A stretch of DNA of 64,000 bases from Candidatus Spongiihabitans sp. (GCA_965206355.1 OZ242212.1:2014814-2078813), one strand, 5' to 3'; shown: positions 20,072 to 58,995, numbered from the stretch's first letter. The notes: generated by a model from the sequence alone, not told the origin. Program-made: numbers and translations.

Positions 20072-20072
20072 G

Positions 20073-20129: not shown

Positions 20130-20144
20130 GCATAAGGAAATAAA

Positions 20145-20615: not shown

Positions 20616-20617
20616 GC

Positions 20618-20718: not shown

Positions 20719-20735
20719 AACAGAAGAGGATAACG

Positions 20736-20987: not shown

Positions 20988-21007
20988 TCAAATCAAGGAG
21001 AAAAATT

Positions 21008-21214: not shown

Positions 21215-21223
21215 ACAGCGATT

Positions 21224-21298
21224 GTCTAACAAGCACCTGCACTGGATGTCTTTTTCGCACTTCGTGCTCCAAAGTCACCAGTGAGGTGAACGTTAGCA
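21224..21298 (+). other. attC site 4 (75 bp)
   Basis: Inverse core GTCTAAC and core GTTAGCA, with internal pairing CACCTGCACTGG / CCAGTGAGGTG. The cassette starts TTAGACAA, the reverse complement of TTGTCTAA. Confidence 0.8.
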
Positions 21299-21894
21299 GT
21301 ACATGGAGTTTAGGTGCTTTGGGCAAGTTAATTATTAAAATTCTAAAGATATCGCTACTTTTGTTAGTTGCTATTGCTCTTATTATTGGAGCGTATTTCG
21401 GTTACCTAGACTACGAAAAATCTCAAAAACTAAAAGCCGAGTTAAGTTACAAATCTAAACATGAATGGATATGGCACGATGAATATGAACGTATTCAAAT
21501 AAGACATATTGATGCTATTGGCAAAAGTATGCTTCGCAAAGTTTATACTCATAAAAATCATGTTATTTATGCGTATAAAAATGACGACTATTCACTTCAA
21601 GCAACAGTTTTATTTTTTGTACCTTGTGAGCCACAAAGTGAAATCATAACATCACAAGAGTTTAGTTCGGGTGAACCCAAAAAACTTGTATGCAACTCAG
21701 ACGGTGAAGCTCTTCGTTTTGGTGTTAGTTGGTCAGATAAAAGTAGTGATAAGCTTTGGGAAGAAAAGCTTGATGGGTTTAGTTTAAGAGTTGATTTCTC
21801 AGATTGGGACTTTACGAAATTAGATCAAGAAGTAACTTTATCAAAAGCTGAGCCAAAAAGTACTGCTAACAAGTCGCTCAAGCGGACGCGCTAA
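21286..21894 (+). CDS. hypothetical membrane-anchored protein (cassette 5); start uncertain (GTG inside attC 4)
   Basis: 202-aa ORF with one N-terminal TM helix (ISLLLLVAIALIIGAYFGY). I recognise no motif. Its 3' end runs into attC 5. Confidence 0.45.
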   Translation: MNVSSTWSLGALGKLIIKILKISLLLLVAIALIIGAYFGYLDYEKSQKLKAELSYKSKHEWIWHDEYERIQIRHIDAIGKSMLRKVYTHKNHVIYAYKNDDYSLQATVLFFVPCEPQSEIITSQEFSSGEPKKLVCNSDGEALRFGVSWSDKSSDKLWEEKLDGFSLRVDFSDWDFTKLDQEVTLSKAEPKSTANKSLKRTR

Positions 21895-21919
21895 TCGCTC
21901 GCTTAGCAAGGCATTAGAT
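21864..21919 (+). other. attC site 5 (56 bp)
   Basis: Inverse core TGCTAAC and degenerate core ATTAGAT. The cassette starts TTAGCAGTA, the reverse complement of TACTGCTAA. Confidence 0.7.
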
Positions 21920-21937
21920 GACAAAAGGAAAATAACC

Positions 21938-22627
21938 ATGTTTTGGGATTCCGTTCTTGGTGGCCTTAAAGTGTTGACTTATTGGGAAGTGTATGTTGCC
22001 GGACTTGCGTATCTTGCAATATTTTTTATTCCGATGGCCATAATTAGCATGGTTATGGAAAAAGATGAAGGTCGTGGAGCATTTACAGGTTGTCTCAGTA
22101 AATTTTTAATACCTTTGCCTAAAGCAGTAGCAATGGCAATTATGATTCTTACCATCGCGCCGATAATCTTTGGCCTTTCCGAGGACGCAGCATGGAGTTT
22201 TCCATGGCAATTTATAGTTATGGAACCGGGCGTTTTTTTAATGCTTTTGAGTGTCCTAGCCGTCGTACATACAGCTATTCCAGGATTTGTACCAATCAAC
22301 CCGGTGCAATCATTACAAACGCTTGTGCTTGGCGGAATCACACTCGTGATTGTTCTCAACGGTATTCTTGATTCAATTAGTCCGGGCATAGTCAAAGATC
22401 GCGTAGATTTTATTCCTGGGTTCTGGTTTTCGACAAGCCTAATCGTATTGGGGTACGTTCTGTCAGGGGTTGGCATGATAGTAGGAACCATAATAGGATC
22501 GGTGTTTGCAATGGGCAAAAAAAATATCGGTGAGTTAATTGTGATCCCTATCTCAGAAATATTCGGTTTTGTTCCAGTATTTATGTATGGCGCATGGATA
22601 GGCGCACAAGTCCGAGGCGGTTTCTAA
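21938..22627 (+). CDS. hypothetical polytopic membrane protein (cassette 6)
   Basis: 229-aa ORF with about 6-7 hydrophobic helices and RBS AAAGGAA. No motif recognised. Confidence 0.5.
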   Translation: MFWDSVLGGLKVLTYWEVYVAGLAYLAIFFIPMAIISMVMEKDEGRGAFTGCLSKFLIPLPKAVAMAIMILTIAPIIFGLSEDAAWSFPWQFIVMEPGVFLMLLSVLAVVHTAIPGFVPINPVQSLQTLVLGGITLVIVLNGILDSISPGIVKDRVDFIPGFWFSTSLIVLGYVLSGVGMIVGTIIGSVFAMGKKNIGELIVIPISEIFGFVPVFMYGAWIGAQVRGGF

Positions 22628-22860: not shown

Positions 22861-24003
22861 ATGGCCTGGAAAAACCTCACGCAACGCAGTTTGGCGGATG
22901 GCATGTTGATCGAGCATGATGCCCTCAAAGAACTGGATGGTGTGCACGAATTAATCGATTGGTCGCGCCTTGAGCAACTGCTTTCAGGTATTCATGCAAG
23001 CCCTCGGGGCGAGAAGGCCTGGCCGCCATTGATGATGGTTAAAGCGTTGTTGCTGCAAAGCTGGTACGGGCTCAGTGATCCGGCACTGGAAAAGCAATTG
23101 GCGCGAGACCTGCTGTTTCGTCGCTTCACCGGTCTGGACATTTCAGAATCGGTGCCGGATCACACGACGTTGTGGCGGTTTAGACAAACGCTGGAGCGCT
23201 TATCCTTGATGGATGCGTGCCTGGGTGAGATCAACACGCAATTGAGCGAACAAGGGCTTTACATCCAATCGGGAGGGGTCAGTATTGTTGATGCCAGTGT
23301 GATTGAAGCGAAGCCATGTCGTCCCTACAAGGGTCGTCCCCATAAGAACCAGGAAGGTCATTCGACCCAAGACCCCGAGGCCAGCTGGAATGTGAAAGCC
23401 GGGTCGGATGGAAAGCGCAAAAGCACATATGGGTATAAGGCGCACATAAATGTGGATGAAGATGGGTTCATCAAGTCAACCGACTACAGCCCGGGTAATG
23501 TGCATGATTCCAATTGCTTTACGGATTTATTAGGCGGCGATGAGACGGCGGTTTATGCGGATAGTGCTTATCGTAGTCGGGCTCACGACCAGTGGCTGGC
23601 GGAGCGACAGATAGATAGAGACCTTTGCACGAAAGCCATTTCACCTGCATACTGCGTTAAAAACGTACTCAATCGGTCATTTATAAGCATAAACTCCCTC
23701 ATTCCGTGCGTTTTTGCCTTGCCTGAAAGCGAAATCATCTTCCGTGCAAAGGTCTCAGATAACCGGGTCATCAAACGTGGCTATCGGAACAAGCCGTTGG
23801 ATGCACAGGGGAGGAAGTTTAATCGGCTTCATTCTGGGGTACGCTGTACGGTGGAACGTGTCTTTGGGGTGCTCAAGCTACACTACGGGATGGGCAAAGC
23901 CCGCTACCTGGGTCTTGGCCGTAACCGCACGCGCTTTGAGTTGATGTGCGTCGCCCACAATATCAAGCGGGGTTTATCGCTTCAGCAGGCAAGTTGCGCC
24001 TAA
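22861..24003 (+). CDS. IS5-family DDE transposase with an in-frame 144-bp MITE+duplication insertion (probably inactive)
   Basis: WPPLMMVKALLLQSWYGLSDPALE, VDASVIEA, YADSAYRS and VERVFGVLK match the IS5/DDE_Tnp_1 pattern. Residues RDLCTKAISPAYCVKNVLNRSFISINSLIPCVFALPESEIIFRAKVSD are MITE-encoded, between the second D and the E. Confidence 0.8.
   Translation: MAWKNLTQRSLADGMLIEHDALKELDGVHELIDWSRLEQLLSGIHASPRGEKAWPPLMMVKALLLQSWYGLSDPALEKQLARDLLFRRFTGLDISESVPDHTTLWRFRQTLERLSLMDACLGEINTQLSEQGLYIQSGGVSIVDASVIEAKPCRPYKGRPHKNQEGHSTQDPEASWNVKAGSDGKRKSTYGYKAHINVDEDGFIKSTDYSPGNVHDSNCFTDLLGGDETAVYADSAYRSRAHDQWLAERQIDRDLCTKAISPAYCVKNVLNRSFISINSLIPCVFALPESEIIFRAKVSDNRVIKRGYRNKPLDAQGRKFNRLHSGVRCTVERVFGVLKLHYGMGKARYLGLGRNRTRFELMCVAHNIKRGLSLQQASCA
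23618..23756 (+). mobile_element. MITE copy 4 (139 bp) inside the IS5-family transposase gene
   Basis: Full termini are present. 5-bp duplication AGATA (23613-23617 and 23757-23761). Confidence 0.85.
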
Positions 24004-33066: not shown

Positions 33067-36000
33067 TCATGCCTGAATGGCTTCTGCGGTGTGATTGATT
33101 TTATCAATCCACCCTTGCGCTTTTTGTCGTCTGGCAATTTTCAGGGCTTGATTGAGATAAGATTTTGCCTCCGTCAGATAATTTTTATGATATTTTTTAC
33201 CGATGCGGCTGGCAATAACCCGTTCAGCTTTAAGACGATATAATTCTGCCTGATAAAATAATTCTTCGTTCTTCTCGCTCAGTGTTAATGCACGTTGCAG
33301 GGATTCTTGTGCTGCCGCATAGTCGCCCACAGCAATTTGTATCTCTGCGGTCATACCTAGCAAATAGGTTAAATCAATTTCTTCTTTGGACTCAAACAAG
33401 GTATTGGTCGCTTGCACCACTTGCTGCAATGCCTGTACATCTTGACGGCTACTGGCAATGGCAAGATTCTGAAATAACAACCCGCGTTTGATAAACATAT
33501 CTTGTCCCCGAGTACGCGCCAGCTCAATAACCTCTGCACTATACGCCAGTACCGTTGCCGTATCGCCTAACAGCATCTGCGTGAAACAACTGTTACTTAA
33601 CGCAGAGACTGTCGCGTAATCTGATTCCTGACGCGCACTTTCGATGGCTTGACGACACAGCAACCTGGCAGACTTCCGCTCACCGATAAAAAACTTCACA
33701 TAGGACAGGTAATCCAGACTCATGCTCGGATAACAATTCAGACCACTTACCTCTTGCCCTTTAATGTCCAGTGCCGATTCCAGATGTTGCTGTGCCTTGT
33801 TGAGTTCGCCCAGTACACAATGCGCTATACCCAGCACTTGCTGTCCGCTGATTTTTGCCGCCAGATGGTTATTGTCAATGCCAATATCTAAAATAGTTTG
33901 TGCCGAACTCAACGATTTTCGTATCATACCGGCATTAAAAGTAATACCAAACTCAAAATCCAGCGCATCAATTTCCTTTTCAATATCACCCATCTGAGCG
34001 GCAATTAACACGGCGTTACGAAAGCAGTCATGCGCATCTTCAGAGACCGCACCCAAGGTCGCATTCAAAGCACGCCCTCTGCTCATAGACAGGCGGTATC
34101 GCTGATTGAGGTCGGTGTATTGGCTAATTTTAGGCAGATGCGCCGTGGCATTATTAAGCAGACCCACTGCCTCAATGGTCGCTCCGGAATTGAATGCGCT
34201 TTCTCCAGCATCAAGCCAATAGCGGAAACCGTTTATGTCATCTCCGGCCTGATCGTAGTGGTAGGCTATCACTTGCTTATCTAATGCATGTGTTGGTACG
34301 GCCATCGATGGATCAGGATGAGAGAGATATTGCGCAATCATTGCGTGAATTTTTCTGCGGTTTTTCTTGAGCAGGCTTTCATAGGCGGCATCTCGTAACA
34401 AGATGTGTCGGAATTGAAAACCACAATATGAGACATCTGATTGCGCGTAGATAATGTCTTGCTTAATCAGGTTCTCCAGCCCGGCTTCAATCGTTTCATG
34501 CTGCTGTCCACAAATGTGATATAATAGTGATTTTGTGAATGATTCGCCAATGACAGCGGCACATTGCACCAGATATTTTGCTTCGCCCAGCCCATCTAAC
34601 CTTGACAACAAAGAGGCTTGCAGTGTATCTGGAACGTGTATGGGTTGACTCGAGTTTTGTTGTCGGTTGGGCGCGGAATAATTACTGTCCAGCATGACTT
34701 TGGTGACTTCCTCAATGAAGAGCGGGACACCCGCACCTTTGTCACTGATGCTATCCACTATGGATTCATCTAGCTCGCTCATCGCACTGTTTTTCGATAT
34801 TTCTTCAATCAAGCGATGTGATTGCTGAACCGTCAATTTCATCAACGAAAGATGGGTGACATGGGATTGCGGATAGGACAGCGGTTTATTTAAGCGATGA
34901 CTCACAAGCAACATTATTGAGTGGTTATGATTTCTGCGTACCAACATATCCAACACGTTGAGCGTTGTCGGATCAACCCAGTGCGTGTCTTCGATAATCA
35001 GCAATACCGATTCGCTATTGGATAATTCAATGATAAAGTTTGTCAAACTCTCCTGCGCTAACTGCAATTGGTGTTGTGAGTCAACATCAGGTTTTCTCTC
35101 GTCATTCACTTGTAGCGCGATCAGCGATGTTACGGTATGCAGAAAGTTTTCATCCAATTTGTATTTTTTCAACAACAATTCCTTGAGCTTTAAATACTGT
35201 ATTTGATCATCGTCGTTGGGAAATATCCCGGACTCCCACATCAGACTGACCAGATAGGGATAGAGTGGACTACGTGAATGATAGGGAGAGCCATGAATTC
35301 TTAACAGGTGATACGGTTCTTTTAACTGTTCAAGCAAGGAATCAATGAGTCGGGTTTTGCCAATTCCGGCTTCACCAGACAGCAACACCACCTGTCCTTT
35401 GTTCTGACAGGTCTGTTGCCAGCAATCAAGCAACAAAGTCAGTTCATTTTCGCGATTGATTAGTGATGTTAAATGCTTGTCTGTTTCCTTGCGAAAATAT
35501 TGTTTGATCGGCTGTTCCCGCCGCACCTGCCAGAGTCGAATCGGTTCGGCATAACCTTTTATCGGCTGCTCACCTAACTCGGTAAATTCAAATGTATTGA
35601 CGATAAGTCGATGGGTATCGGGTGCAACGACAATGGCATTCGGTGAAGCTAATCTCTGTAGTCTTGCCGCCAGATTAGGTGCTTCACCAACCACCGCATT
35701 TTCTTTGGTTATATCATCACCGATGGTTTCGATCACCACATATCCTGTGGCAATACCAATCCTAACCGACAGCGTCATATCGTTTGAGCAGGAAAATATC
35801 TTGTTGAGTTGATCAACCTGACGAACGATTTCCAAGCCTGCCCACACCGCCCGCTCGGCATCATCCTCCAGCATGAGCGGATATCCAAAATACACCAGCA
35901 AGCCATCACCCATGTAGCGGGCTATGTATCCACCAAATTTCTTGATGGCTCTGGCGCAACCCTCTTGATAAGCCCGATAAAGATCATGTATATCTTCAAT

Positions 36001-36318
36001 ATCAAACCCGCTCGCAATCCTGATTGAGTCCACAAGATCGCAAAACATTAATGTCATATATCGCCGCTCCGGATCAATATGAATGGGTTGCAGATTCGGT
36101 GATATATTTGACAGTGGCTGGTTTATTCGCTCTGCCTCATTGTTAAGTTTTCTGAGTGCTTTGAGTATTTTTTTACGATGTCCGAGGGAAACATTCAGTA
36201 TCGCAAGATCCGCTTCTGAAAGCTCACCGAGCACATCCATATCAATATCATTTGCCATAAATTTTTCGGTGTATTGCACCAGCCCAAGCTCTGACAACCA
36301 CTTATTGACCTCTGACAT
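33067..36318 (-). CDS. SAM-domain / class III adenylate-guanylate cyclase / STAND-type AAA ATPase / TPR multidomain protein
   Basis: The N-terminal SAM-like domain reads VNKWLSELGLVQYTEKFMANDIDMDVLGELSEADLAILNVSLGHRKKILKAL. Cyclase motifs are LMFCDLVDS, RYMGDGLLVYFG and GEAPNLAARLQ. The P-loop is LLSGEAGIGKTRL. The C-terminal ~450 aa is helical-repeat (TPR-like). Confidence 0.75.
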   Translation of the reverse strand: MSEVNKWLSELGLVQYTEKFMANDIDMDVLGELSEADLAILNVSLGHRKKILKALRKLNNEAERINQPLSNISPNLQPIHIDPERRYMTLMFCDLVDSIRIASGFDIEDIHDLYRAYQEGCARAIKKFGGYIARYMGDGLLVYFGYPLMLEDDAERAVWAGLEIVRQVDQLNKIFSCSNDMTLSVRIGIATGYVVIETIGDDITKENAVVGEAPNLAARLQRLASPNAIVVAPDTHRLIVNTFEFTELGEQPIKGYAEPIRLWQVRREQPIKQYFRKETDKHLTSLINRENELTLLLDCWQQTCQNKGQVVLLSGEAGIGKTRLIDSLLEQLKEPYHLLRIHGSPYHSRSPLYPYLVSLMWESGIFPNDDDQIQYLKLKELLLKKYKLDENFLHTVTSLIALQVNDERKPDVDSQHQLQLAQESLTNFIIELSNSESVLLIIEDTHWVDPTTLNVLDMLVRRNHNHSIMLLVSHRLNKPLSYPQSHVTHLSLMKLTVQQSHRLIEEISKNSAMSELDESIVDSISDKGAGVPLFIEEVTKVMLDSNYSAPNRQQNSSQPIHVPDTLQASLLSRLDGLGEAKYLVQCAAVIGESFTKSLLYHICGQQHETIEAGLENLIKQDIIYAQSDVSYCGFQFRHILLRDAAYESLLKKNRRKIHAMIAQYLSHPDPSMAVPTHALDKQVIAYHYDQAGDDINGFRYWLDAGESAFNSGATIEAVGLLNNATAHLPKISQYTDLNQRYRLSMSRGRALNATLGAVSEDAHDCFRNAVLIAAQMGDIEKEIDALDFEFGITFNAGMIRKSLSSAQTILDIGIDNNHLAAKISGQQVLGIAHCVLGELNKAQQHLESALDIKGQEVSGLNCYPSMSLDYLSYVKFFIGERKSARLLCRQAIESARQESDYATVSALSNSCFTQMLLGDTATVLAYSAEVIELARTRGQDMFIKRGLLFQNLAIASSRQDVQALQQVVQATNTLFESKEEIDLTYLLGMTAEIQIAVGDYAAAQESLQRALTLSEKNEELFYQAELYRLKAERVIASRIGKKYHKNYLTEAKSYLNQALKIARRQKAQGWIDKINHTAEAIQA

Positions 36319-39105: not shown

Positions 39106-39462
39106 GGGGGTGACTGGCTTCGACGTTGGTCGCGAAACCATTGGAGCATGTCGAGGTGTAGAGTTCCTCGTAAATCCAGCTACACAACATTAGTTGCCAA
39201 CGACGACAACTACGCACTAGCCGCTTAAGCCGGTTAGTCCTTTCGCTTGGCTCGCTTTTAGGCTGAGGTTTGAAAGGTCATCTTATAAAAGCTCGCTAGT
39301 CAGTTCTGCTCGTTAGCTGACGGTTAAAACCAATCGGGCTCGCCGACCTGTTTGCTTCGTCTGCCTGCTGGCAAGTCGGTTAACTTAAAGTGCAGACTAA
39401 GCATGTAGTGCCGATGTGTGTAGGATCTGCGGACGCGGGTTCAATTCCCGCCACCTCCACCA
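39106..39462 (+). ncRNA. ssrA: transfer-messenger RNA (tmRNA)
   Basis: 5' GGGGGTGACTGGCTTCGACG. Tag reading frame at 39196-39228: GCC AAC GAC GAC AAC TAC GCA CTA GCC GCT TAA, giving ANDDNYALAA. 3' tRNA-like end GGACGCGGGTTCAATTCCCGCCACCTCCACCA. Confidence 0.9.
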
Positions 39463-50075: not shown

Positions 50076-50837
50076 ATGGCTACAACATGCCCACAATATA
50101 TCCGCGAGATGAATGAGTTACGATTAAGAGAAGCCTTGCCCACCCTGTTGGGCGATGTGCTGTTGTCTGATCGGCTGGAGTTTGGCGAACTGACCTGCGA
50201 AATAAAATATCAGGACATCAAAAGCGTCTGTCAAACACTGCGCGATCACCCCGACACCCAATTTGATCAGCTTATTGATTTGTGTGGCATAGATTATTCC
50301 ACCTATGCTGTCGAGGACAATACCCACGCTCATCAAAGCAGCAGTCATAAAGGTTCAATCCAAACAGAAGCAGACCAGACAGAAACAGATCAGACAAAAG
50401 CAAACCATAAAAAGGCAAAGAACCATAGTCGCTATGCGGTGGTGTATCATCTGCTGTCATTAAACCACAATTTCCGCCTGCGCTTACGCACCACATTGGA
50501 CGCTGAAAAATCAGGGGGGCAGCCAAGTACCGAATCGGTCATTGATATTTGGGCAACTGCAAATTGGTTTGAACGAGAAGCCTTTGACTTGCTGGGCATT
50601 ATGTTCACTGGACACCCCGATCTGCGGCGTTTGCTGACCGACTACGGTTTCATTGGTCATCCGTTTCGCAAGGATTTCCCCTTATTCGGTCAGGTTGAAA
50701 TGCGTTACGATGAGGAACAAGGTCGGGTCATTTATCAACCCGTGACCATAGAGGAGCGAATATTGACACCCCGAACCATCAGAAAAGACAGTTTTGTCAA
50801 GACTGCCCATAATGGCGCGGATGAGGCATCAAAATAA
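50076..50837 (+). CDS. nuoC: NADH-quinone oxidoreductase subunit C (with a low-complexity insertion)
   Basis: [41 protein letters not shown], plus an inserted His/Gln/Thr/Asp/Lys-rich segment. Confidence 0.9.
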
Positions 50838-52090
50838 TGGCAGAAATCAGAAACTATACGATGAATTTTGGGCCGCAGCACCCGGCTGCCCACGGTGTCC
50901 TGCGGGTTATTATGGAAATGGACGGAGAGGTTATTGAACGTTGCGACCCGCACATCGGGCTACTCCATCGCGCCACCGAAAAACTCGCCGAGTCCAAGCC
51001 CTATAACCAGAGCATCGGCTATATGGATCGGCTTGATTATGTGTCAATGATGTGCAATGAACACGCCTATGTGTTAGCCATTGAAAAAATGCTGGGGGTA
51101 ACGCCGCCCATTCGAGCGCAGTATATCCGCGTCCTATTTGATGAAATTACCCGTATCCTCAATCACTGTTTATGGCTTGGGGCACATGCGTTGGATGTCG
51201 GGGCAATGACGGTATTTTTATATTGTTTCCGCGAACGTGAAGATTTGATGGATTGTTATGAGGCGGTTTCTGGTGCGCGTATGCACGCGACTTATTATCG
51301 TCCGGGTGGTGTCTATCGGGATCTACCCGGGCAAATGCCGAAATATGCACCAACGCAACGTCATTCCGATGAACAAACCAAAGCACGCAATGCCGACCGC
51401 GAAGGTTCCTTACTCGATTTCATTGAAGCCTTTAGCACGCGATTTCCGCACTATGTTGACGAATATGAAACATTGTTAAGCGACAATCGTATCTGGAAAC
51501 AACGTACTGTTGATATTGGCATTGTCAGCCCGGAACGTGCTAAGGCACTGGGTTTTACCGGGCCGATGTTGCGCGGTTCTGGTGTTGAATGGGATTTGCG
51601 GAAAAAACAACCGTATGAAGTTTACGCACAGATGGATTTTGATATTCCGGTCGGCAACAACGGCGACTGTTATGATCGCTATCTGGTTCGTGTGGAAGAG
51701 ATGCGACAATCGAACCGGATTATAAAACAATGTGTGGACTGGTTACGCAAAAATCCGGGAGCGGTTATTGTTGATGACCATAAGTTGATTCCACCGTCCC
51801 GAGAAAATATGAAAGGCGATATGGAATCGCTGATTCACCATTTCAAATTGTTTACCGAAGGCTATTGTGTGCCCGCGGGAGAGGCTTATGCCGCCATTGA
51901 ACACCCGAAAGGTGAGTTCGGTATTTATCTGCTTTCCGATGGTAGCAACAAACCTTATCGGCTAAAAATTCGGGCCCCGGGCTTTCCGCATTTGGCCGCA
52001 TTGCATGAAATGTCGCAGGGGCATATGCTAGCGGATATGGTGGCCATCATCGGTTCTCAGGATATTGTTTTCGGGGAGATCGACCGCTGA
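50837..52090 (+). CDS. nuoD: NADH-quinone oxidoreductase subunit D
   Basis: [15 protein letters not shown] and a C-terminus ..[14 protein letters not shown]. Confidence 0.95.
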
Positions 52091-52557
52091 TGCTCTCCGA
52101 CGCATCTCTCGCGGCGATCGAACGGGAACTCGCCAAATACCCCGAAGACCGGCGCCAGTCGGCATTGATGGCGGCGCTGCGCATCGCTCAGGATGAACAT
52201 AACTGGTTGAGTGATGCGCTTATTGAATATGTTGCCGAGGTCATTCAGGTGGCACCGATTCGTGCTTATGAAGTCGCCACATTTTATTCGATGTATGAAC
52301 TAAAACCGGTCGGCAAACATAAAATCAATGTCTGCACCAATATTTCCTGTCTGTTGCGTGGTTGTGATGAGGTGGTCAGCCATTTACAGCATAAATTGGG
52401 TATCGGTTTTGGTGAAACAACTGCAGACGGTAAGTTTACGCTGAAAGAAGTAGAATGTCTGGCCGCCTGCGCGGGTGCGCCGATGATGCAGGTTGACCAC
52501 GACTACCACGAAAACCTCACCCCCGCGCGCATTGACGAGATTTTGGACGGGGTTTGA
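52090..52557 (+). CDS. nuoE: NADH-quinone oxidoreductase subunit E
   Basis: 2Fe-2S ligand pattern VCTNISCLLRGC ... ECLAACAGAPMMQVD. Confidence 0.95.
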   Translation: MLSDASLAAIERELAKYPEDRRQSALMAALRIAQDEHNWLSDALIEYVAEVIQVAPIRAYEVATFYSMYELKPVGKHKINVCTNISCLLRGCDEVVSHLQHKLGIGFGETTADGKFTLKEVECLAACAGAPMMQVDHDYHENLTPARIDEILDGV

Positions 52558-52613
52558 TTCGAGCAAGTATTTACAAGTATCAAATGCATTCCAACAGCCT
52601 ACGAAACTAAAAA

Positions 52614-53756
52614 ATGTCGACTGACAATAGCGCAGTATTTACGGCAATCCACACGGAATTGCTTGATGAGTACCAGCAAAACCACAACCATCCATGGGTT
52701 GTTGGTTATTCCGGCGGCAAAGATAGCACGCTGGTAGCACACCTGGTGTTCGAGATGTTATTATCCCTGCCACCAAGTATGCGAACGCGGCATGTACACA
52801 TAGTGTCCAATGACACATTGGTTGAAAGCCCGTTGGTTATTCGCCACACCACCAAAAGTTTGCGTGAAATCGGTACAGCAGCAACAGTATTTCGGTTACC
52901 TGTCAAAACCCATATGACACGCCCGGATGCCAATCAGTCTTTTTGGGTAAATTTGATTGGGCGAGGATATCCATCACCAAACCGATCATTCCGATGGTGC
53001 ACTGACCGTATGAAAATTCAACCCACCAGCCGATATATCAAAGAGCGCATCAATGTCTCCGGTGAAGTGATACTGCTGTTGGGCGTACGACGCTCCGAAA
53101 GTGCGTCTCGCAGCAGGTCGGTGGCGCGCTACGATAATGGTGGGCGACTTAATCCACATGGTGATCTGGCCAAATGCATGGTATTTCGTCCCATCGTTGA
53201 TCTTTCGACCGATGAGGTATGGGAGTACTTGGCGAACAACGATTCACCGTGGGGCGGTTCGCATGCTAATTTAATCAAACTATACCGCGACGCTGGCGGC
53301 GGCGAGTGCCCGGTGGTCACGCAAAAATCGGACACCCCTTCATGCGGGACACGGTCATCGCGATTTGGTTGCTGGACATGCACGGTGGTGGATAAAGATC
53401 GCAGCCTTGCGGGGTTCGTAGAAGCCGGGTTTGGTGAGTTTGAACCGCTTATGGATTTTCGCGATTGGCTGGTGTCTATTCGCAACGATCCGAACAGGCG
53501 ACAAGCCCGCAGGCGAAACGGGCGCATTACAATGACCCGAGATGGTACTTTTGTGCCGGGCCCCTTTACAATCCAAGCCCGGTCTGAAATTATGGGGCGC
53601 CTGCAAGCATTACAAACCGAAACCAATCAAACATTGATTAGCGATGATGAAATTGATGCCATCCATAAAATTTGGGTCGAGGATATCGTTCGATCAACCG
53701 ACACACAGCCCATGCAAGTGTGTGTAATCAACAAGAGAAAAACAAATGTCGCATAA
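52614..53756 (+). CDS. dndC: DndC-like PAPS-reductase/PP-loop ATP pyrophosphatase (DNA sulfur-modification type)
   Basis: 380-aa ORF with PP-loop VVGYSGGKDSTL, RWCTDRMKIQP, and cysteine cluster GECPVVTQKSDTPSCGTRSSRFGCWTCT typical of DndC. It is shorter than the DndC proteins I recall. Confidence 0.75.
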   Translation: MSTDNSAVFTAIHTELLDEYQQNHNHPWVVGYSGGKDSTLVAHLVFEMLLSLPPSMRTRHVHIVSNDTLVESPLVIRHTTKSLREIGTAATVFRLPVKTHMTRPDANQSFWVNLIGRGYPSPNRSFRWCTDRMKIQPTSRYIKERINVSGEVILLLGVRRSESASRSRSVARYDNGGRLNPHGDLAKCMVFRPIVDLSTDEVWEYLANNDSPWGGSHANLIKLYRDAGGGECPVVTQKSDTPSCGTRSSRFGCWTCTVVDKDRSLAGFVEAGFGEFEPLMDFRDWLVSIRNDPNRRQARRRNGRITMTRDGTFVPGPFTIQARSEIMGRLQALQTETNQTLISDDEIDAIHKIWVEDIVRSTDTQPMQVCVINKRKTNVA

Positions 53757-53943
53757 TCACATCGTGCTGTTGAATAATCCGGAAAGCCGCGAAATGGTCG
53801 AGAGATTGTGCGCAGAACATGGGTTTGAATTTACGGTGTTTGAGGAGTTGATTGAGGCCGAGATGAAGCAAATCGGCAAACTAAAAAAGCATGGACTGTG
53901 GTTAGATTTTGACGAGATACTTGACCGTATTGAAATAGAATAA
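53746..53943 (+). CDS. 65-aa acidic hypothetical protein, translationally coupled to the DndC-like gene
   Basis: The ATG overlaps the upstream stop by 11 nt (ATGTCGCATAA). The frame is closed 18 nt upstream (TAA at 53725-53727), so it is not a frameshifted DndC C-terminus. No motif recognised. Confidence 0.5.
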   Translation: MSHNHIVLLNNPESREMVERLCAEHGFEFTVFEELIEAEMKQIGKLKKHGLWLDFDEILDRIEIE

Positions 53944-53950
53944 TGCTGCC

Positions 53951-56014
53951 ATGTATATTCGCCGAATAGAACTAAATAACTGGAAAGCATACCAATCTGC
54001 TGTTTTTGAATTTCCAGCACCCTCCGACAATCAAAATATTGTTTTGATTGGGGCACGCAATGGTTATGGGAAGACCAGTTTGTTTCAAGCAATTTTACTT
54101 GGCATGTATGGCAAGGACGGCTTTGATTTGATAAAACGATCGCTGTTGTCTGGCAGGGATGGACAATACAGTTCGTACTCCAACTTTCTCAAAAGTGTTT
54201 TGCATAAAAATGCCATTGGTGAAGGGGCGAGATCATGTGCGATTAAAATTAAATTTGTTAATGGCAGCCAAACTCCGATAGAGATTGACAGGCGTTGGTA
54301 TTTTAGTTCTGCGGGTGTTCATCTTGCGAAAGACGATCAGGTGGACATATTCGAATCCGATAACCGTACCCCAGTGGGACCAGCGAATAAAAATGAAGAT
54401 CCTATCGTTTGGAAGCGTAATTATATCGAACGCGCTCTGCTTCCTCCTAATCTGTCGTCATTCTTTTTGTTTGATGGTGAAAAAGCAAGCATTTTTGCTG
54501 ACCACGATATGGCAGTACAAGTCAAAATGGGGATCACTGGATTGCTTGGCATCCCCATCATTCAAGAACTAGCGGAAGATTTACGATCATATGTAATCGC
54601 TCGTAAGCCGAAAGCCCCGAATGTGTCAGACGATACTATTGCGGAGTCAGAAAATACTCGCACCCAACTAAAAAAACAGTTGGACCAACAAGAAAAGCTT
54701 TGGAATGATGCCCAATGTGAATTAACACAACTCAAACACGACAGAGACAGTATTTTGCAAGAACTTATGTCCTTTGGTGTTGACTCACAAACGAACATCC
54801 GCCAAAAAACAGAACAACTTTCTAAGTTGGAAAATGAAATAGCCAATAAAGAAGAACAACTATCCAATTTGCTCGCCACCGACATAGCGCTTGCATTAGC
54901 GGGAAGGAGCTTGCGGAAAAATCTGGCTACGCGACTAAAAAGCGAAAGCACGCTCAACAAATGGGAAGCCGGCAAACAACAAGGAGATAGCCGGATAGAT
55001 GCTTTCATTGACGCGCTGAGCAAAGGAATGACTGAAATTGCGCCGCCTATCTATGCTAGTCAGCGCACACGTATTTTGGAAATCGCCCGCGCAGCATGGG
55101 AGAAATTGTGGTTTCCTCCGCCTGAAAATTGCGCTCGTGACTATTTGCATCCCTATTTAACTGAAGGGGAACGGGGAACGGTCACACAACACTTGGAAAA
55201 ATTAAATACGGTTAGCGCACCGCAGATCATATCATTGCTCGCGTCTATCAAGTCCGCCGGAATAAAACAGAAGGAGTTGAGGGCTGAAGTCAACCGTCTT
55301 GCCGCAATAGAACCTCATTTACAAGAAAAGCGAAATCTGCTGACTCCTCTGAACAAGAATATCGACGCTCTGAATCAACAAATTGGAGAAATACGTCGTA
55401 AAAAAACCTCATTGGACGCAAAAATTAACAGCAAGAATGAGGAGTTGGGTCGACTCTACACAAAAAAAGACAGTGCAAAGCCGCATGCTCGGAGAAATTA
55501 TCGTGCTACTAAAGTAGCAAACATGATCGATGCAATTGTGAACGATGCTGTGCCCAGTCAGATAAATGCGATCGCCGGAGCAATGACAAGCGCGTATAAG
55601 GATATTGCACACAAAGGACTTGTGGAAAAAATTGATATTGATGACCAATGCGGTGTCAAATTGCTGAATGGAGATGGGGAGGATGTACGCGATCTTGATA
55701 CATCAGCTGGTGAGAAACAAATATTCACTCAAGCGTTAATTTCTGCGATTTCGGCGGTATCGGGTCGTGCCTTCCCGATGGTCATAGACACGCCGCTTGG
55801 CAGACTAGATAAACGGCACCGAGTGGGCGTCCTACGACATTTGGTAAAACCACACAGACAAGTGATACTGCTGTCTACTGACACCGAAGTAGTCCAGGAG
55901 TACTTGTGTGCAATTGAATCACAAATTCAGAAAAAGTACTTGATTAACCACGATGTTGTGACTGGTACATCAACCGCAACGGTCGGGTATTTTGACTCGG
56001 AGGTGACGGAATGA
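53951..56014 (+). CDS. dndD: DndD-like SMC/ABC-type ATPase
   Basis: 687-aa ORF with Walker A at the extreme N-terminus (LIGARNGYGKTSLFQAI), a long central coiled coil, signature SAGEKQ and Walker B/D-loop PMVIDTPLGRLD. Confidence 0.75.
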   Translation: MYIRRIELNNWKAYQSAVFEFPAPSDNQNIVLIGARNGYGKTSLFQAILLGMYGKDGFDLIKRSLLSGRDGQYSSYSNFLKSVLHKNAIGEGARSCAIKIKFVNGSQTPIEIDRRWYFSSAGVHLAKDDQVDIFESDNRTPVGPANKNEDPIVWKRNYIERALLPPNLSSFFLFDGEKASIFADHDMAVQVKMGITGLLGIPIIQELAEDLRSYVIARKPKAPNVSDDTIAESENTRTQLKKQLDQQEKLWNDAQCELTQLKHDRDSILQELMSFGVDSQTNIRQKTEQLSKLENEIANKEEQLSNLLATDIALALAGRSLRKNLATRLKSESTLNKWEAGKQQGDSRIDAFIDALSKGMTEIAPPIYASQRTRILEIARAAWEKLWFPPPENCARDYLHPYLTEGERGTVTQHLEKLNTVSAPQIISLLASIKSAGIKQKELRAEVNRLAAIEPHLQEKRNLLTPLNKNIDALNQQIGEIRRKKTSLDAKINSKNEELGRLYTKKDSAKPHARRNYRATKVANMIDAIVNDAVPSQINAIAGAMTSAYKDIAHKGLVEKIDIDDQCGVKLLNGDGEDVRDLDTSAGEKQIFTQALISAISAVSGRAFPMVIDTPLGRLDKRHRVGVLRHLVKPHRQVILLSTDTEVVQEYLCAIESQIQKKYLINHDVVTGTSTATVGYFDSEVTE

Positions 56015-57570
56015 GTATTTCAATGGTGGAGGTTACTGGTGCGAATTTTCGCACCGATGGTAAAAGCGACAACACCAACACCCAGTTCATGGATCACCTT
56101 GGGATGCGGTTGCGTTATCTACCCGCCCGCCTTGCCATTTCCAGATCACTATCAATAGTTTCTCCAGTGACGACATTTAGCGGGAAAAACGATGGAAAGA
56201 CCATCAAAGGCGATACCCTGTTCGGTAACGATGCAACCCTACTGGTTTGGGTTTCACTTATCGTGGAACATGCCGGTGATCGCGATATGGACATAAAAAA
56301 ATTAATTGATTTAGTCGCCGGACATTGGCGCAGGGGCATCGACATCCTTGATAAGGAATGGAAACAGTCTAACGACATTGAGGAATTTGTAGCTAGATTA
56401 GTGGATGTAGCAGAGTTGCCGCGCGATGGTGGGCATACAACCGTTGTCCCTGACAACTACGGCGATGCGATTGCTCTTCCTGCATCAAACATCACCGTGC
56501 CTATCGGCGAAGTTTCCAAAGACACTACAACCAATAAAAACGTGTTGTGGAATTTGAACGGGGCGGGTGGGTCGCCGCATAGCGCGATTATGGGCGGGGT
56601 CGGTTCGGGCAAAACCCGAACGGCGGTTGCCATGCTGAAAAGCATTCGCGAACAAACACAGGTGCCTTTAATCGCCTTTGACTTTAAGGGTGACCTGGGC
56701 ACCGATGACAATGGCAATGGCTATCACATTGAGAAAATTTTTAATGCGGACATTTCTGCACCGCCACGACGACCCATACCATTGAATGTTTTTTTATTAA
56801 ATTCAAGAGATGACATAGATATCGCAGAAGCAGCGTCACGTTTCCGTGATGCATTTGATCACTTAAAAGTCGGGCAATTTGGCGCGAAACAGAGGGACGC
56901 AATACACGAAGCTGCAACAGCCGCATTAACAACACACGAAGTGTGCGAGATCACACATATACGAGATGCGTTAGAGAGAGTGTACGAAGAACGGGAATAC
57001 AAAGAAGACGGTGCCATTTCCACGATGCGAGACATTTGCCGCTTCCCATTGTTTGAGCCTAGATTTACTCCTTCAGCTTTTTTTACAAATAATCATTTAA
57101 TTAAACTGCCGCCTAATATAGCGGGAGACAACCGAAAATTGATTGTCAATCTAGTATTAAACGCTTTGGATCAATACCTTAACAGTCTAGCAGATTCTCA
57201 AACCAATGATGACGGAGCACGAGCATTGCGAGTTTTGTGTATGGTGGACGAAGCGCATCAAATTTTAGGACAAAAACTACCCTCTCTTTCCAATCTTATG
57301 CGCATGAGCAGATCCAAAGGTGGCGCAATTATGCTGGTTTCGCAATCACCGGATGATTTTTCTGGTGTGGAAGATGATTTCTTGAACGAGATGGGATTGA
57401 TCGTCGCCTTCAACACCAACGCTTCGCCACGAAATGTAGGTCGTATTCTTGGCGGAAAGGCTAAATTAACTGGATTGAAAACCGGACAGTGTTTTGTAAA
57501 ACGACGGGAAGACTCGAATAGTAAACGAGTAGTCGCGTGGTCAAACGAAAACCGATCTGATACAGAATAA
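56011..57570 (+). CDS. DndE-like N-terminal domain fused to a HerA/FtsK-type P-loop ATPase (DndEi-like)
   Basis: 519-aa ORF whose start overlaps the DndD-like stop (ATGA). Residues ~10-130 (LGMRLRYLPARLAISRSLS...DGKTIKGDTLFG...GHWRRGIDIL) resemble DndE. It has Walker A GGVGSGKTRTA, Walker B LCMVDEAHQIL and a downstream LVSQSPDDF. Confidence 0.6.
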   Translation: MSISMVEVTGANFRTDGKSDNTNTQFMDHLGMRLRYLPARLAISRSLSIVSPVTTFSGKNDGKTIKGDTLFGNDATLLVWVSLIVEHAGDRDMDIKKLIDLVAGHWRRGIDILDKEWKQSNDIEEFVARLVDVAELPRDGGHTTVVPDNYGDAIALPASNITVPIGEVSKDTTTNKNVLWNLNGAGGSPHSAIMGGVGSGKTRTAVAMLKSIREQTQVPLIAFDFKGDLGTDDNGNGYHIEKIFNADISAPPRRPIPLNVFLLNSRDDIDIAEAASRFRDAFDHLKVGQFGAKQRDAIHEAATAALTTHEVCEITHIRDALERVYEEREYKEDGAISTMRDICRFPLFEPRFTPSAFFTNNHLIKLPPNIAGDNRKLIVNLVLNALDQYLNSLADSQTNDDGARALRVLCMVDEAHQILGQKLPSLSNLMRMSRSKGGAIMLVSQSPDDFSGVEDDFLNEMGLIVAFNTNASPRNVGRILGGKAKLTGLKTGQCFVKRREDSNSKRVVAWSNENRSDTE

Positions 57571-57588
57571 CTGCGACCGACTGGCCAA

Positions 57589-58995
57589 ATGAACACTTTA
57601 AACACCATGCGCATCTGCCACGGCGTTTGTCTGCCCACCGAGCATGACCGTTGCTGGACGCTGGCAAGCTATAAAGCGAATGGCGGATATCATGCCCTTG
57701 AAAAAATCCTCAAAGAGCATATCCCGGCAACCGACATCAATGAAGCCTTAAAAGAAGCCAACCTGCGCGGGCGTGGTGGTGCCGGTTTTCCGGTTGGCGT
57801 TAAATGGAGCTTTATGCCACGTGATGCCGATGTGCAAAAATATGTGGTGTGTAATTCTGACGAGGGCGAGCCCGGAACCTGTAAAGATCGTGACATCCTG
57901 CGCTACAACCCCCACGCGCTCATCGAAGGCATGGCCATCGGCGGCTACGCGATGGGTGCGACGGTGGGCTACAACTACATCCGCGGCGAGTTTTGGGAGC
58001 CCTATCAGCAGATGGAAGCCGCCATGGCTGAAGCCTACGACACCGGCTTGTTGGGTAAAAACTTGCTCGGTTCAGGGTTTGATTTTGACCTGTACAGTCA
58101 TTTGGGGGCGGGGGCCTATATTTGTGGAGAAGAAACTGCCCTGCTTAATTCTCTGGAAGGCTTAAAAGGGCAACCCCGCTTCAAACCGCCTTTCCCCGCT
58201 ACCTTCGGCTTATACGGTAAGCCGACCACCATTAACAATACCGAATCTTTTGCATCCATTCCAGCTATTTTGCGTGGTAACGGCAAATGGATGGATAGCC
58301 AGTGGTTCAAGGGTCTGGGTGTCGAAAACTCAGGCGGTGTGAAAATATTTTCGGTGACTGGTCATGTTGAATTACCGGGAAACTATGAAATCAAGATGGG
58401 TACGCCATTTAGTGAACTGTTGCAGATGGCAGGCGGGGTCTGGAAAAATCGAAAATTGAAGGCGGTTATCCCCGGCGGCTCTTCAGTACCAGTGATGCCT
58501 GCCGAAAATATTATGCAAGCGAATATGGATTATGATTCGCTACAAAAAAACGGTTCTGCGGTCGGTGCCGGTTCGGTTATTGTCATGGATGAAAACACCG
58601 ATATGGTCAAAGTGTTAGAACGCATTTCCTATTTTTATTTTGAAGAATCATGTGGGCAATGTACGCCGTGTCGGGAAGGCACTGGCTGGCTATATCGTAT
58701 CATTAGACGTATTAATAATGGACAAGGGGTGCGCTCAGATCTGGATACCTTGCTGGATGTTGCCAATCGCATTGAAGGGCGCACCATCTGTGCATTAGGG
58801 GATGCCGCCGCTTGGCCAGTGCAGAGTTTTCTGAAACATTTCCGCCATGAGTTTGAAGCGAAGATAAGCAAAAGCCTGCACCCTGTCGTTAATAATCAGT
58901 CCCATGACCCTGCCGATGACCATACCGACAATGTCGCGTCAGACGACCACCTTGCCGAGCAAGCGCAATCTCGGGCAGAGCAAATAACCATATGA
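57589..58995 (+). CDS. nuoF: NADH-quinone oxidoreductase subunit F
   Basis: [25 protein letters not shown], and N3 cluster motif [12 protein letters not shown]; ~40-aa C-terminal extension. Confidence 0.95.

Follow-up and report, generated by a model that had tools for sequence, protein, structure and literature searches.

Organization of the dnd cassette

The stretch of DNA analysed here (the window; 64,000 nt from Candidatus Spongiihabitans sp., GCA_965206355.1 OZ242212.1:2014814-2078813) carries a cassette of four co-directional, closely packed genes. Together with the genes that flank it, the cassette is organized as follows:

52090 to 52557, plus strand: nuoE, upstream flank (Pfam 2Fe-2S_thioredx, E=3.9e-57), 56 nt before the cassette
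52614 to 53756, plus strand: dndC, short form, encoding a 380-aa PP-loop/PAPS-reductase-type sulfurtransferase (TIGR03183, 390.7 bits; cut-off 290.4)
53746 to 53943, plus strand: gene for a 65-aa small protein, overlapping dndC by 11 nt
53951 to 56014, plus strand: dndD, encoding a 687-aa ABC/SMC-like ATPase (TIGR03185 over its full length, 258.1 bits; cut-off 245.85)
56011 to 57570, plus strand: gene for a DndE::HerA/FtsK-type ATPase fusion (probable DndEi type), 519 aa, ATG start
57589 to 58995, plus strand: nuoF, downstream flank (Pfam Complex1_51K, NADH_4Fe-4S), 18 nt past the fusion gene

Both DndC and DndD exceed their NCBIfam equivalog cut-offs, and the translations contain Walker motifs as well as, in DndC, an SGGKDS PP-loop and an RFGCWTC cysteine motif. 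The TIGR03183 match of DndC spans profile positions 9-373 of 447. A strong PADLOC match to PbeC was also obtained for DndD, but this assignment is contradicted by the above-cut-off equivalog score with TIGR03185. The order dndC, small gene, dndD and fusion gene is syntenic in most of 80 genome loci, distributed among Alpha-, Beta- and Gammaproteobacteria and one Poribacteria MAG, and the cassette genes evolve under purifying selection (dN/dS = 0.09-0.32). The fusion ORF, which shares its first 4 nt with the end of dndD, is the fourth and final gene of the cassette, as the initial annotation had proposed, and all the motifs quoted there (LGMRLRYLPARLAISRSLS, DGKTIKGDTLFG, GHWRRGIDIL, GGVGSGKTRTA, MVDEAHQIL and LVSQSPDDF) occur in the translation of 56011-57570.

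Domain architecture of the fusion protein

The product of the fusion gene is probably a DNA-sulfur-modification protein of known type, with a DndE DNA-binding domain and a predicted ring-ATPase motor. The following features were recognized along its coding sequence:

56011 to 56415, plus strand: DndE domain, residues 1-135, with two tandem ribbon-helix-helix units, a long H2b helix and a C-terminal helix
56416 to 56475, plus strand: flexible linker, residues 136-155, with pLDDT <50 in the full-length model; the most variable, gap-rich stretch of the alignment
56488 to 57552, plus strand: HerA/FtsK-superfamily P-loop ATPase domain, residues ~160-514 (Pfam TrwB_AAD_bind, DUF87 and HerA_C)
56593 to 56616, plus strand: Walker A, G195-T202 (GGVGSGKT), with G195, G196, G198, G200, K201 and T202 invariant in 58 sequences
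57247 to 57252, plus strand: Walker B acidic pair, D413-E414 (MVDEAH), invariant in 58 sequences
57301 to 57345, plus strand: candidate arginine finger (R431, R434) and sensor-1 glutamine (Q445), invariant in 58 sequences, with roles assigned by position only

Full-length homologues measure 506-523 aa and are 55-77% identical end to end; against relatives, the fusion gene has a dN/dS of 0.14-0.16. A profile of the family searched against 1.84 billion 50%-identity representatives recovered 1213 matches at E<=1e-3, including 143 at E<=1e-30. Taken together, these results mark the ORF as genuine and not a chance reading frame. Within its own family the fusion architecture is ordinary, with hundreds of homologues that several sources name "DndE family protein". 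The AlphaFold model of the full-length protein has a mean pLDDT of 86.

The first ~135 residues are DndE-like, in agreement with the ~130 residues initially assigned to this domain, and both profile and structure searches bear this out. Pfam DndE (PF08870) matches residues 26-118 of the window protein at 20.3 bits for the full protein and 23.3 bits for the domain alone (gathering cut-off 25), and TIGR03184 scores 17.6 bits against a cut-off of 71.85. Across the family, PF08870 is matched by all 30 members searched at E<=0.01 (best E=1e-10), and the family profile retrieves the DndE structure 7x4e as its best PDB match (E=7e-4). The AlphaFold model of the domain (pLDDT 84) has a strand at 12-14, helices at 17-30 and 36-47, a 16-residue linker, a strand at 64-66 and helices at 74-88, 95-120 and 123-133. 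This is the layout of two tandem ribbon-helix-helix units with a long H2b and a C-terminal helix that has been described for DndE (PMC10853773). The top 15 Foldseek matches of the model in the PDB are all DndE crystal structures (target TM-scores 0.69-0.82, e.g. 0.81 for 7x4e, and 0.80 with an rmsd of 2.1 A for 4lrv). The next match is TraY of the F-plasmid relaxosome, an order that agrees with the DndE-TraY similarity reported earlier (PMC10853773). Another trait of the DndE family, operonic pairing with a DndD/CxC ABC ATPase, is present as well, with dndD directly upstream here and in nearly all related loci. The domain shares with the canonical stand-alone DndE of E. coli B7A (4lrv) and Natronorubrum bangense (7x4e) its fold (target TM-score ~0.8, rmsd 2.1-2.8 A) and its operonic pairing with DndD, whereas the canonical proteins are ~110-130 aa long, lack a motor and are only 19-22% identical to the window domain.

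The C-terminal remainder is, as first proposed, a P-loop NTPase of the HerA/VirB4/FtsK superfamily. Besides the Pfam families listed above, its PDB sequence matches are HerA (8wiv, 4d2i), YjgR and DptH (7es4), and its best PADLOC matches are mad8 (4e-17) and the DndH C-terminus (3e-15). With Foldseek the best match is the C-terminal domain of DndH (7es4; E=3.9e-16, target TM-score 0.76, 384 aligned columns), and further matches include HerA (4d2i, 1.5e-11), Sir2-HerA, VirB4 (4ag6, target TM-score 0.68) and TrwB. A sensor-1 glutamine and an upstream arginine finger have been described as marks of the HerA/FtsK clade (PMC10853773), and Q445 stands at the end of strand 438-444 in the AlphaFold model. 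As judged from the alignment, the ATPase motifs are intact; the domain would probably form a hexameric ring capable of ATP-driven DNA translocation. Despite the common superfamily and the top structural match, sequence identity to the motor of DndH/DptH is 16%, and DndH, a restriction protein of ~1700 aa, combines its motor with a nuclease and many further domains, whereas the window motor is joined to the DNA-recognition subunit of a modification module. Nor does the protein belong with unrelated DUF87 ATPases that never occur beside DndC and DndD, since the fusion always co-occurs with both.

Relationship to known fusions and proposed function

Fusions of this type are already known, both as DndEi of Riemerella and as the "HerA/FtsK fused to DndE" group of Rakesh, Aravind and Krishnan 2024 (PMC10853773). 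DndEi has been described in Riemerella anatipestifer and other Bacteroidota (Zheng et al. 2016, J Biol Chem 291:1492, as cited in PMC6435447; Barbier et al. 2013). In Riemerella, phosphorothioate (PT) modification depends on the extra domain acting as a helicase, and the ATPase activity is stimulated by DNA bearing the GAAC/GTTC motif (PMC6435447). The precedent invoked by the initial annotation fits, in that the window protein has collinear homologues of ~525 aa among the 'DndE family proteins' of Bacteroidota. One Bacteroidota representative matches the profile of the window family at E=3.8e-38 over profile positions 12-482, and its relatives are 'DndE family proteins' of Flavobacteriaceae, Flavobacterium, Chryseobacterium, Prevotellaceae and Parabacteroides. 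The window protein itself aligns with the Chryseobacterium protein over residues 39-497 (26% identity, E=8e-28). The link to DndEi, as drawn from sequence comparison, goes through these other Bacteroidota homologues, which come from taxa where DndEi has been reported. Common to both are a single polypeptide with DndE and ATPase/'helicase' domains and a gene placed after dndC and dndD. In addition, the Chryseobacterium cluster has a DndB-like gene downstream, as do about a quarter of the proteobacterial loci. In contrast, the Bacteroidota cluster examined encodes an unsplit 446-aa DndC and no small gene, while DndC is always split in the proteobacterial family; also, the window copy lies inside the nuo operon, and identity is only ~26%.

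The group of Rakesh, Aravind and Krishnan, in which DndE-fused HerA/FtsK motors are placed with the clade-3 motors of DndH (PMC10853773), resembles the window protein, whose motor finds its top structural match in the C-terminal domain of DndH (7es4). Structure and profile matches suggest that the window motor belongs to clade 3. Its DndE domain is a double ribbon-helix-helix with short, clade-1-like loops in the terms of that work (H1a-H2a ~5 residues, H1b-H2b ~6). The available portion of the main text makes no mention of a split DndC or of a nuo context.

A further comparison is provided by plasmid pRphaN831b of Rhizobium phaseoli, which carries a cassette syntenic with that of the window: dndC (379 aa), a small protein (Pfam Sp-DndD, E=1e-12), dndD and a DndE-motor fusion (WP_064823497.1, DndE+FtsK_alpha+FtsK/SpoIIIE, annotated 'DNA translocase FtsK'). 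The DndE domains of both fusions are 34% identical, but the motor in Rhizobium belongs to FtsK/SpoIIIE proper and comes with an FtsK alpha domain (133.5 bits), and its locus additionally encodes TusA, a methyltransferase, a DGQHR protein and an HNH endonuclease. Since the two motors align only at the P-loop motifs, the ATPase has been exchanged within the superfamily.

Taken together, the domain identities, the intact motifs, the synteny with dndC, the small gene and dndD, the purifying selection and the homology to Bacteroidota DndEi make it probable that the window gene encodes a DndEi-type subunit of a PT modification module, in which a ribbon-helix-helix DndE domain is connected by a ~20-residue disordered linker to a catalytically intact HerA/FtsK ATPase. 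The ATPase would assemble as a ring, probably a hexamer, on double-stranded DNA, and ATP hydrolysis would drive movement along the DNA or its local unwinding, presumably through a translocase or helicase activity. Target sites may be located jointly by the tethered DndE domains and the co-evolving ABC ATPase DndD; there DndC, as a 380-aa enzyme plus a 65-aa C-terminal module, would insert sulfur to yield the predicted PT product. No cysteine desulfurase occurs in the cassette or among the 20 largest other ORFs of the window, and no recurrent desulfurase was found beside related cassettes. IscS is documented to stand in for DndA, and the sulfur would probably be supplied here by a housekeeping cysteine desulfurase such as IscS.

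Restriction partners and the role of the motor

No restriction component (DndFGH, PbeABCD, SspE or a PT-reading nuclease) was found adjacent to the cassette, which is flanked directly by nuoE and nuoF, and no nuclease family was detected among 20 large ORFs scanned in the window. The absence of restriction genes had been regarded as unusual; Dnd modification modules of this kind are, however, common (PMC10853773).

The initial annotation had also offered the ATPase as a possible effector arm. The closest structural relative of the motor sits in the restriction protein DndH, which formally leaves room for a role other than in modification. In that case the ATPase could serve a self-contained defence system as its effector or restriction arm and, in the manner of a DndH motor, intercept or pump the DNA of invaders. 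The C-terminal domain of DndH is among the best matches in both the structural and the PADLOC searches, and captured HerA/FtsK motors have been proposed to localise defence complexes to invader DNA (PMC10853773). Also, about 23 of the 80 related loci contain two additional genes directly downstream of the fusion gene which could be effectors, the first encoding either a membrane protein of ~180 aa or a protein of ~170 aa in which a GIY-YIG-like motif was seen by eye (no Pfam match), and the second a DndB/DGQHR protein. However, the cassette of the window clade, between nuoE and nuoF, has no such downstream neighbours, the fusion partner DndE is the DNA-recognition subunit of the modification core, and in Riemerella the extra domain is required for modification itself (PMC6435447). 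With a fusion protein devoid of nuclease or other effector domains, and a module housed in a housekeeping operon, an effector role is unlikely.

Insertion in the nuo operon

What is new at this locus is its genomic context, which the initial annotation of the fusion gene did not mention. With nuoE immediately upstream and nuoF immediately downstream, the four-gene module is unexpectedly lodged within the nuoA-N operon for respiratory complex I and, from this position, is most likely transcribed with it. No terminator-like sites were detected on the plus strand in the nuoE-dndC or fusion-nuoF gaps, and their number in the region is within the range of shuffled sequences. The same nuoE/nuoF position is occupied in at least three related metagenomic lineages besides the window (L001, L003 and L096/L097), while the nearest relatives by NuoF have an empty site, with nuoE and nuoF overlapping by 4 nt. 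In L002, which carries a cassette of the same clade, the cassette lies outside the nuo operon. Between nearly identical hosts, dS reaches 1.1-2.8 in the cassette genes as compared to 0.10 in nuoD and nuoE, a ~10-fold contrast indicating that cassette alleles have been swapped among these hosts, the pattern of a mobile, diversifying module. Other nuo junctions in related operons are occupied by unrelated DNA methyltransferase genes, which suggests that modification genes settle in the operon opportunistically.

One tentative reading, for which we would claim no better than a minority chance, is that the nuoE/nuoF junction of this uncultured gammaproteobacterial lineage constitutes a dedicated and recurrently used docking site for a restriction-less PT modification cassette, which is transcribed with complex I and whose alleles pass between strains while selection keeps them different, in a way comparable to specificity alleles in restriction-modification systems.

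Alternatively, the module could have been recruited to a role linked with respiration, either housekeeping or regulatory, in which self-marking of the defence type would not be the main purpose. It might, for instance, set PT marks with a redox-protective or gene-regulatory effect, coordinated with the expression of complex I. Recurrence of the insertion at one junction and the lack of a nearby restriction partner would be in line with such a role, as would the antioxidant and transcriptional functions reported for PT (PMC5316992, PMC9239176). Yet the exchange of alleles between nearly identical hosts, the empty site of the nearest relatives, the L002 cassette outside the operon and the methyltransferases at other junctions all argue against it, and we consider it improbable, somewhat more so than an effector function of the motor.

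A split DndC

The short 380-aa DndC and the extra 65-aa gene, initially singled out as unusual, proved to be the norm of the family: wherever both were detected (71 loci), they are encoded by separate ORFs. The small protein is conserved in 78 loci (dN/dS 0.12-0.16), and its positional equivalent in a related cassette is named 'DNA modification system-associated small protein' by PGAP and matches Pfam PF20306; the window protein gives a weak match to Pfam Sp-DndD (E=0.016). The C-terminal end of a PADLOC DndC profile is matched by 15 of 25 small-protein members, and hhalign places the small protein on residues 389-435 of the unsplit 446-aa DndC of Chryseobacterium (E=0.0013). Judging by these alignments, the 65-aa protein, which matches the last ~50 residues of unsplit DndC, is a detached C-terminal module of that enzyme.

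That the cassette is a decaying, non-working remnant, with the short DndC and the 65-aa ORF reflecting a frameshifted pseudogene, might be suggested by this C-terminal match and by a dndC ORF that stops 11 nt past the start of a small ORF in a different frame. This reading is effectively refuted: the two ORFs are separate at each of the 71 loci, where all three relative frames occur (35, 16 and 20 loci); the small protein is conserved and has a low dN/dS; and every catalytic motif is intact in DndC, in DndD and in the fusion protein.

Implications

For the fusion itself little changes, as the window gene adds a proteobacterial member to a type already described. [quoted passage not shown] Two other results should aid annotation as well as experiments on how DndCDE finds its sites. 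One is the invariable division of DndC, throughout this branch, into an enzyme of ~375 aa and a C-terminal module of ~65 aa; the other is at least one exchange of the DndE-fused motor, which is HerA-like here and FtsK-like in Rhizobium. A modification module in the complex I operon, with a history decoupled from that of its flanks, offers a tractable case for the spread and persistence of such modules without a restriction partner. If the nuoE/nuoF junction were indeed a docking site, then it and the orphan methyltransferases would mean that genes for DNA modification have a 'safe harbour' in a respiratory operon that is essential and constitutively expressed, and epigenetic or redox-active DNA marks might be tied to respiration.

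Organization of the dnd cassette and its surroundings

The gene encoding the fusion protein is the last of a tight, co-directional run of four genes, located between two genes of the respiratory complex I operon:

52090-52557, nuoE, upstream flank, ending 56 nt before dndC
52558-57588, cassette insert between nuoE and nuoF
52614-53756, co-directional with the fusion gene, dndC, 380 aa (TIGR03183)
53746-53943, co-directional with the fusion gene, small gene, 65 aa, 11-nt overlap with dndC
53951-56014, co-directional with the fusion gene, dndD, 687 aa (TIGR03185)
56011-57570, + strand, fusion gene with ATG start, 519 aa, overlapping the dndD stop by 4 nt
57589-58995, nuoF, downstream flank, starting 18 nt after the fusion gene

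DndC and DndD score above the cut-offs of their NCBIfam equivalogs (390.7 bits against 290.4 for TIGR03183 and 258.1 bits against 245.85 for TIGR03185, respectively). The DndD protein also matches the PADLOC model PDLC02736 ("PbeC") with 799.5 bits, a label that was dropped on account of the NCBIfam DndD score; automatic defence-system callers could mislabel this gene. Housekeeping functions (RadA, alanine racemase, DnaB, ETF, pyruvate dehydrogenase complex, ClpB, FabF) predominate among the 20 largest other ORFs of the window, and no restriction-type family was found among these ORFs. The initial annotation had regarded the missing restriction genes as unusual, which they are not, modules without DndFGH being common according to the abstract of Rakesh, Aravind and Krishnan (2024, PMC10853773).

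Elsewhere in the window, a tmRNA gene (39106-39462), a DDE transposase (DUF772/DDE_Tnp_1; 22861-24003) and a 1083-aa protein with SAM-domain, adenylate/guanylate cyclase, AAA_16 and TPR regions (33067-36318) were identified. Also, a GC-rich stretch (0.56-0.58) includes the gene for a 1058-aa autotransporter carrying Ig and cadherin-like domains (14515-17691), and a GC-poor stretch (0.36) spans 20001-22000.

Domain architecture of the fusion protein

All six motifs quoted in the initial annotation are present in the 519-aa translation, and its core interpretation, a DndE domain joined to a HerA/FtsK-type ATPase, is right. Taken individually, the protein matches DndE profiles weakly, with 20.3 bits (whole protein) and 23.3 bits (isolated domain) to Pfam PF08870, for which the cut-off is 25, and E-values of 0.004 and 0.0016 to TIGR03184 and PADLOC DndE. 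Despite these weak single-protein scores, family-wide profile matches and structure identify the N-terminal domain as DndE, and it is the family as a whole that settles the point. The N-terminal domains of 30 diverse homologues all matched PF08870 (best E=1e-10), and the profile built from these domains has Natronorubrum DndE (7x4e) as its top PDB match (E=7e-4). The AlphaFold model of residues 1-140 (pLDDT 84) displays a strand-helix-helix unit, a linker, a strand-helix-long-helix unit and a C-terminal helix, the same layout that is given for DndE by Rakesh et al. (PMC10853773). In Foldseek searches of the PDB the best 15 matches of this model are all DndE crystal structures, including 7x4e (target TM-score 0.81, rmsd 2.8 A) and 4lrv (target TM-score ~0.80, rmsd 2.1 A), and the first non-DndE match is TraY of the F relaxosome. 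In addition, residues 3-122 share 43% identity with a stand-alone "DndE family protein" encoded on a Rhizobium plasmid.

In the full-length model (pLDDT 86) a disordered linker (residues 136-155) connects this domain to a compact P-loop domain at residues ~160-514. The nucleotide-binding motifs are intact, Walker A (G195-T202) and Walker B (D413-E414) being invariant in 58 sequences, together with Q445, located after the core strand that follows Walker B, and R431 and R434, located upstream of Q445. A glutamine after the core strand and an upstream arginine are marks distinguishing HerA/FtsK from RecA ATPases according to Rakesh et al. (PMC10853773), and Q445 and R431/R434 are candidates for these marks as judged by position. 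Sequence matches of the motor include the TrwB, DUF87 and HerA families, CedB, PADLOC mad8 and the C-terminus of DndH, as well as HerA, YjgR and DptH in the PDB. Structurally, the motor is closest to the DndH C-domain 7es4 (E=3.9e-16, target TM-score 0.76), followed by HerA, Sir2-HerA, VirB4, TrwB and TdpAB. This DndH-like match agrees with the grouping of DndE-fused HerA/FtsK domains with clade-3 DndH motors by Rakesh et al. (PMC10853773).

Family distribution and relation to DndEi

Full-length homologues are numerous (506-523 aa, 55-77% identity) and appear under the names "DndE family protein", "ATP-binding protein" or "helicase HerA domain-containing protein". Of 1.84 billion representatives searched by profile, 1213 matched at E<=1e-3; the number falls to 445 with a limit of E<=1e-10 and to 143 with a limit of E<=1e-30. 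Many of the matches are ~500-535 aa long and aligned end-to-end. A search of JGI metagenomes for closer relatives gave none above 63% identity, and in the plasmid collection a single full-length homologue was found, encoded by the Methylorubrum extorquens AM1 megaplasmid (53% identity). The order dndC-small gene-dndD-fusion gene is conserved nearly throughout 80 reference-genome loci from Alpha-, Beta- and Gammaproteobacteria (including Xanthomonas and Stenotrophomonas) and one Poribacteria MAG. Such synteny clearly contradicts the alternative raised in the initial annotation, namely a DUF87 ATPase that never co-occurs with DndC/DndD.

The DndEi proteins of Riemerella, Flavobacterium and Kordia consist of DndE and a domain with helicase/ATPase activity; this helicase activity is required for DNA phosphorothioate (PT) modification, and the ATPase is stimulated by DNA bearing GAAC/GTTC (review PMC6435447). 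A 526-aa Bacteroidota protein (P0353) matches the profile of the window family over positions 12-482 (E=3.8e-38), and proteins related to P0353 carry the name "DndE family protein" and come from Flavobacteriaceae, Chryseobacterium, Flavobacterium, Prevotellaceae, Parabacteroides and Butyricimonas. Also, a Chryseobacterium protein is collinear with the window protein over residues 39-497 (26% identity, E=8e-28). The link to DndEi of Riemerella is made via these Bacteroidota homologues. Considering the work on Riemerella-type DndEi and that of Rakesh et al., the fusion has therefore been described previously, both experimentally and computationally, and the precedent first invoked for it holds.

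A split DndC

The short DndC and the extra 65-aa gene, initially considered unusual, are the norm of the family, occurring as separate ORFs in 71 of the 71 loci where both were found. In these loci the two genes lie in the same frame with an intervening stop (35 loci), in the +1 relation (16 loci) or in the +2 relation (20 loci), and on this ground a frameshifted DndC pseudogene or a programmed frameshift was rejected. Conservation of the small protein extends over 78 loci, following the pattern C...L..E..Q.G...R..GL..FD.I.D, and the protein evolves under purifying selection (dN/dS 0.12-0.16). Its matches to several DndC profiles fall within their C-terminal ~50 positions, and 15 of 25 members show such a match at E<=0.01. 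In contrast, a Chryseobacterium DndEi-type cluster (L106 4564-5904) encodes an unsplit 446-aa DndC and has no small gene; hhalign places the profile of the small protein on residues 389-435 of this DndC (E=0.0013). On the basis of these alignments, the 65-aa gene is the counterpart of the C-terminal ~50 residues of unsplit DndC. Assignment to Pfam Sp-DndD is less well supported, with a weak match for the window protein (E=0.016) and matches in 2 of 25 members. Separate ORFs, conservation and the match to unsplit DndC therefore indicate an ancient DndC split, fixed in the proteobacterial branch and neither a defect nor an oddity of the window genome.

Motor replacement and partner genes

A syntenic but more distant cassette occurs on the Rhizobium phaseoli plasmid pRphaN831b, where the fusion gene (L105 7995-9521) encodes a DndE domain 34% identical to that of the window. 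Here, however, the fusion partner of DndE consists of an FtsK alpha domain and a true FtsK/SpoIIIE ATPase (133.5 bits); P-loop motifs excepted, this ATPase does not align with the HerA-like motor of the window. Thus, the motor joined to DndE has been replaced within the HerA/FtsK superfamily, paralleling the "HerA/FtsK capture" described for DndH by Rakesh et al. (PMC10853773). The product of the positional equivalent of the small gene in R. phaseoli matches Pfam Sp-DndD (E=1e-12) and is named "DNA modification system-associated small protein" by PGAP, and the locus also encodes TusA, a SAM methyltransferase, a DGQHR protein and an HNH endonuclease.

Two extra genes lie directly downstream of the cassette in about 23 of the 80 loci (examples: L057 9564-11344; L074 10106-11383; L006 9584-10099; L106 9582-11946). 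One encodes either a membrane protein of ~180 aa or a protein of ~170 aa in which a GIY-YIG-like motif was recognized by eye and which has no Pfam match; the other encodes a DndB/DGQHR protein of ~411-425 aa. Neither is present in the window clade. Their products are possible regulator or effector partners.

Proposed role of the fusion protein

The window protein most likely belongs to a PT-modification complex, as the subunit that both recognizes DNA and provides the motor. In such a model the HerA/FtsK domain would form a ring on duplex DNA and drive its translocation or local opening with ATP, while the flexible linker would present the DndE domains. DndE and DndD would select sites to be modified by DndC and its detached C-terminal module, the sulfur of DndC presumably being loaded by a housekeeping desulfurase. 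What the analysis demonstrates directly is the identity of the domains, the integrity of their motifs, the conserved gene order and purifying selection; ring assembly, enzymatic activity, PT as the product, the source of sulfur and co-transcription with nuo are inferences.

Insertion in the nuo operon

The complex I operon (nuoA-N) is interrupted by the cassette, with nuoA-E upstream and nuoF followed by nuoG-J downstream. Uncultured Gammaproteobacteria are the source of the nearest NuoF homologues (84-86% identity), and in the two closest relatives among them the site is empty, nuoE and nuoF sharing a 4-nt overlap. The window NuoF has 468 aa and its homologues 422-472 aa (most 434-451), covering only about 90% of it. 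NuoC (50076-50837) is also long, with 253 aa versus 220-228 aa in relatives, and contains a stretch of low complexity in which T, D, Q and K are abundant.

This location between nuoE and nuoF is shared with at least three further metagenomic lineages, whose fusion proteins are 64-77% identical to that of the window. Contigs L001 and L003 carry the cassette between nuoE and nuoF (75% and 64% identity, respectively) and L096/L097 carry it followed by the start of nuoF (77%); in L002 it lies outside the nuo operon (72%). No nuo gene was found near the cassette in any of the 80 reference-genome loci, and nothing relevant on dnd genes inside nuo operons was found in the literature searched. The nuo-embedded copies group into a single clade of a neighbour-joining tree, and L002 is nested within it. 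Consensus-like promoter and terminator sites in the region do not exceed shuffle expectation, with none on the + strand in the border gaps. The cassette is probably co-transcribed with nuo. Mobile-element ends were also considered, and no direct or inverted repeats pairing the two cassette borders were found.

Four 5.1-5.5 kb metagenomic contigs (L096, L097, L099, L100) consist of the cassette and little else, with their breaks near its edges, which would fit population-level variation there.

Apparent turnover of cassette alleles

Contigs L001 and L003 derive from one metagenome and are 96.5-98% identical over nuoA-E, yet identity drops exactly at the nuoE stop to 57-83% over the cassette (L001 6553-11577 versus L003 6521-11580). 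Between them dS is 0.10 for nuoD and nuoE and 1.1-2.8 for the cassette genes, the latter with dN/dS of 0.09-0.19. A comparison of the window with L001 gives the opposite relation, with dS of 0.7-1.5 for the cassette, 1.96 for nuoE and saturation for nuoD, although values this high are unreliable. These contrasts between cassette and nuo genes show, therefore, that the history of the cassette is decoupled from that of its flanks, and they fit old, divergent cassette alleles that seem to be exchanged at a fixed site.

Different DNA-modification genes occupy further junctions in related gammaproteobacterial nuo operons. An N6_N4 DNA methyltransferase and a 222-aa protein lie between nuoI and nuoJ (L003 16923-18613, L101 13288-14942), and an N6_Mtase/Eco57I-type gene between nuoD and nuoE (L103 5568-7121). 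Extras unrelated to DNA are a glyoxalase and a 197-aa ORF between nuoB and nuoC in L001 and L003; in L003, nuoC and nuoD are additionally separated by an SDH_protease/NfeD-type gene.

The fusion protein is of a known type and its companions are the norm of the family; the parts worth following up are the embedding of the cassette in the nuo operon and the turnover of its alleles.
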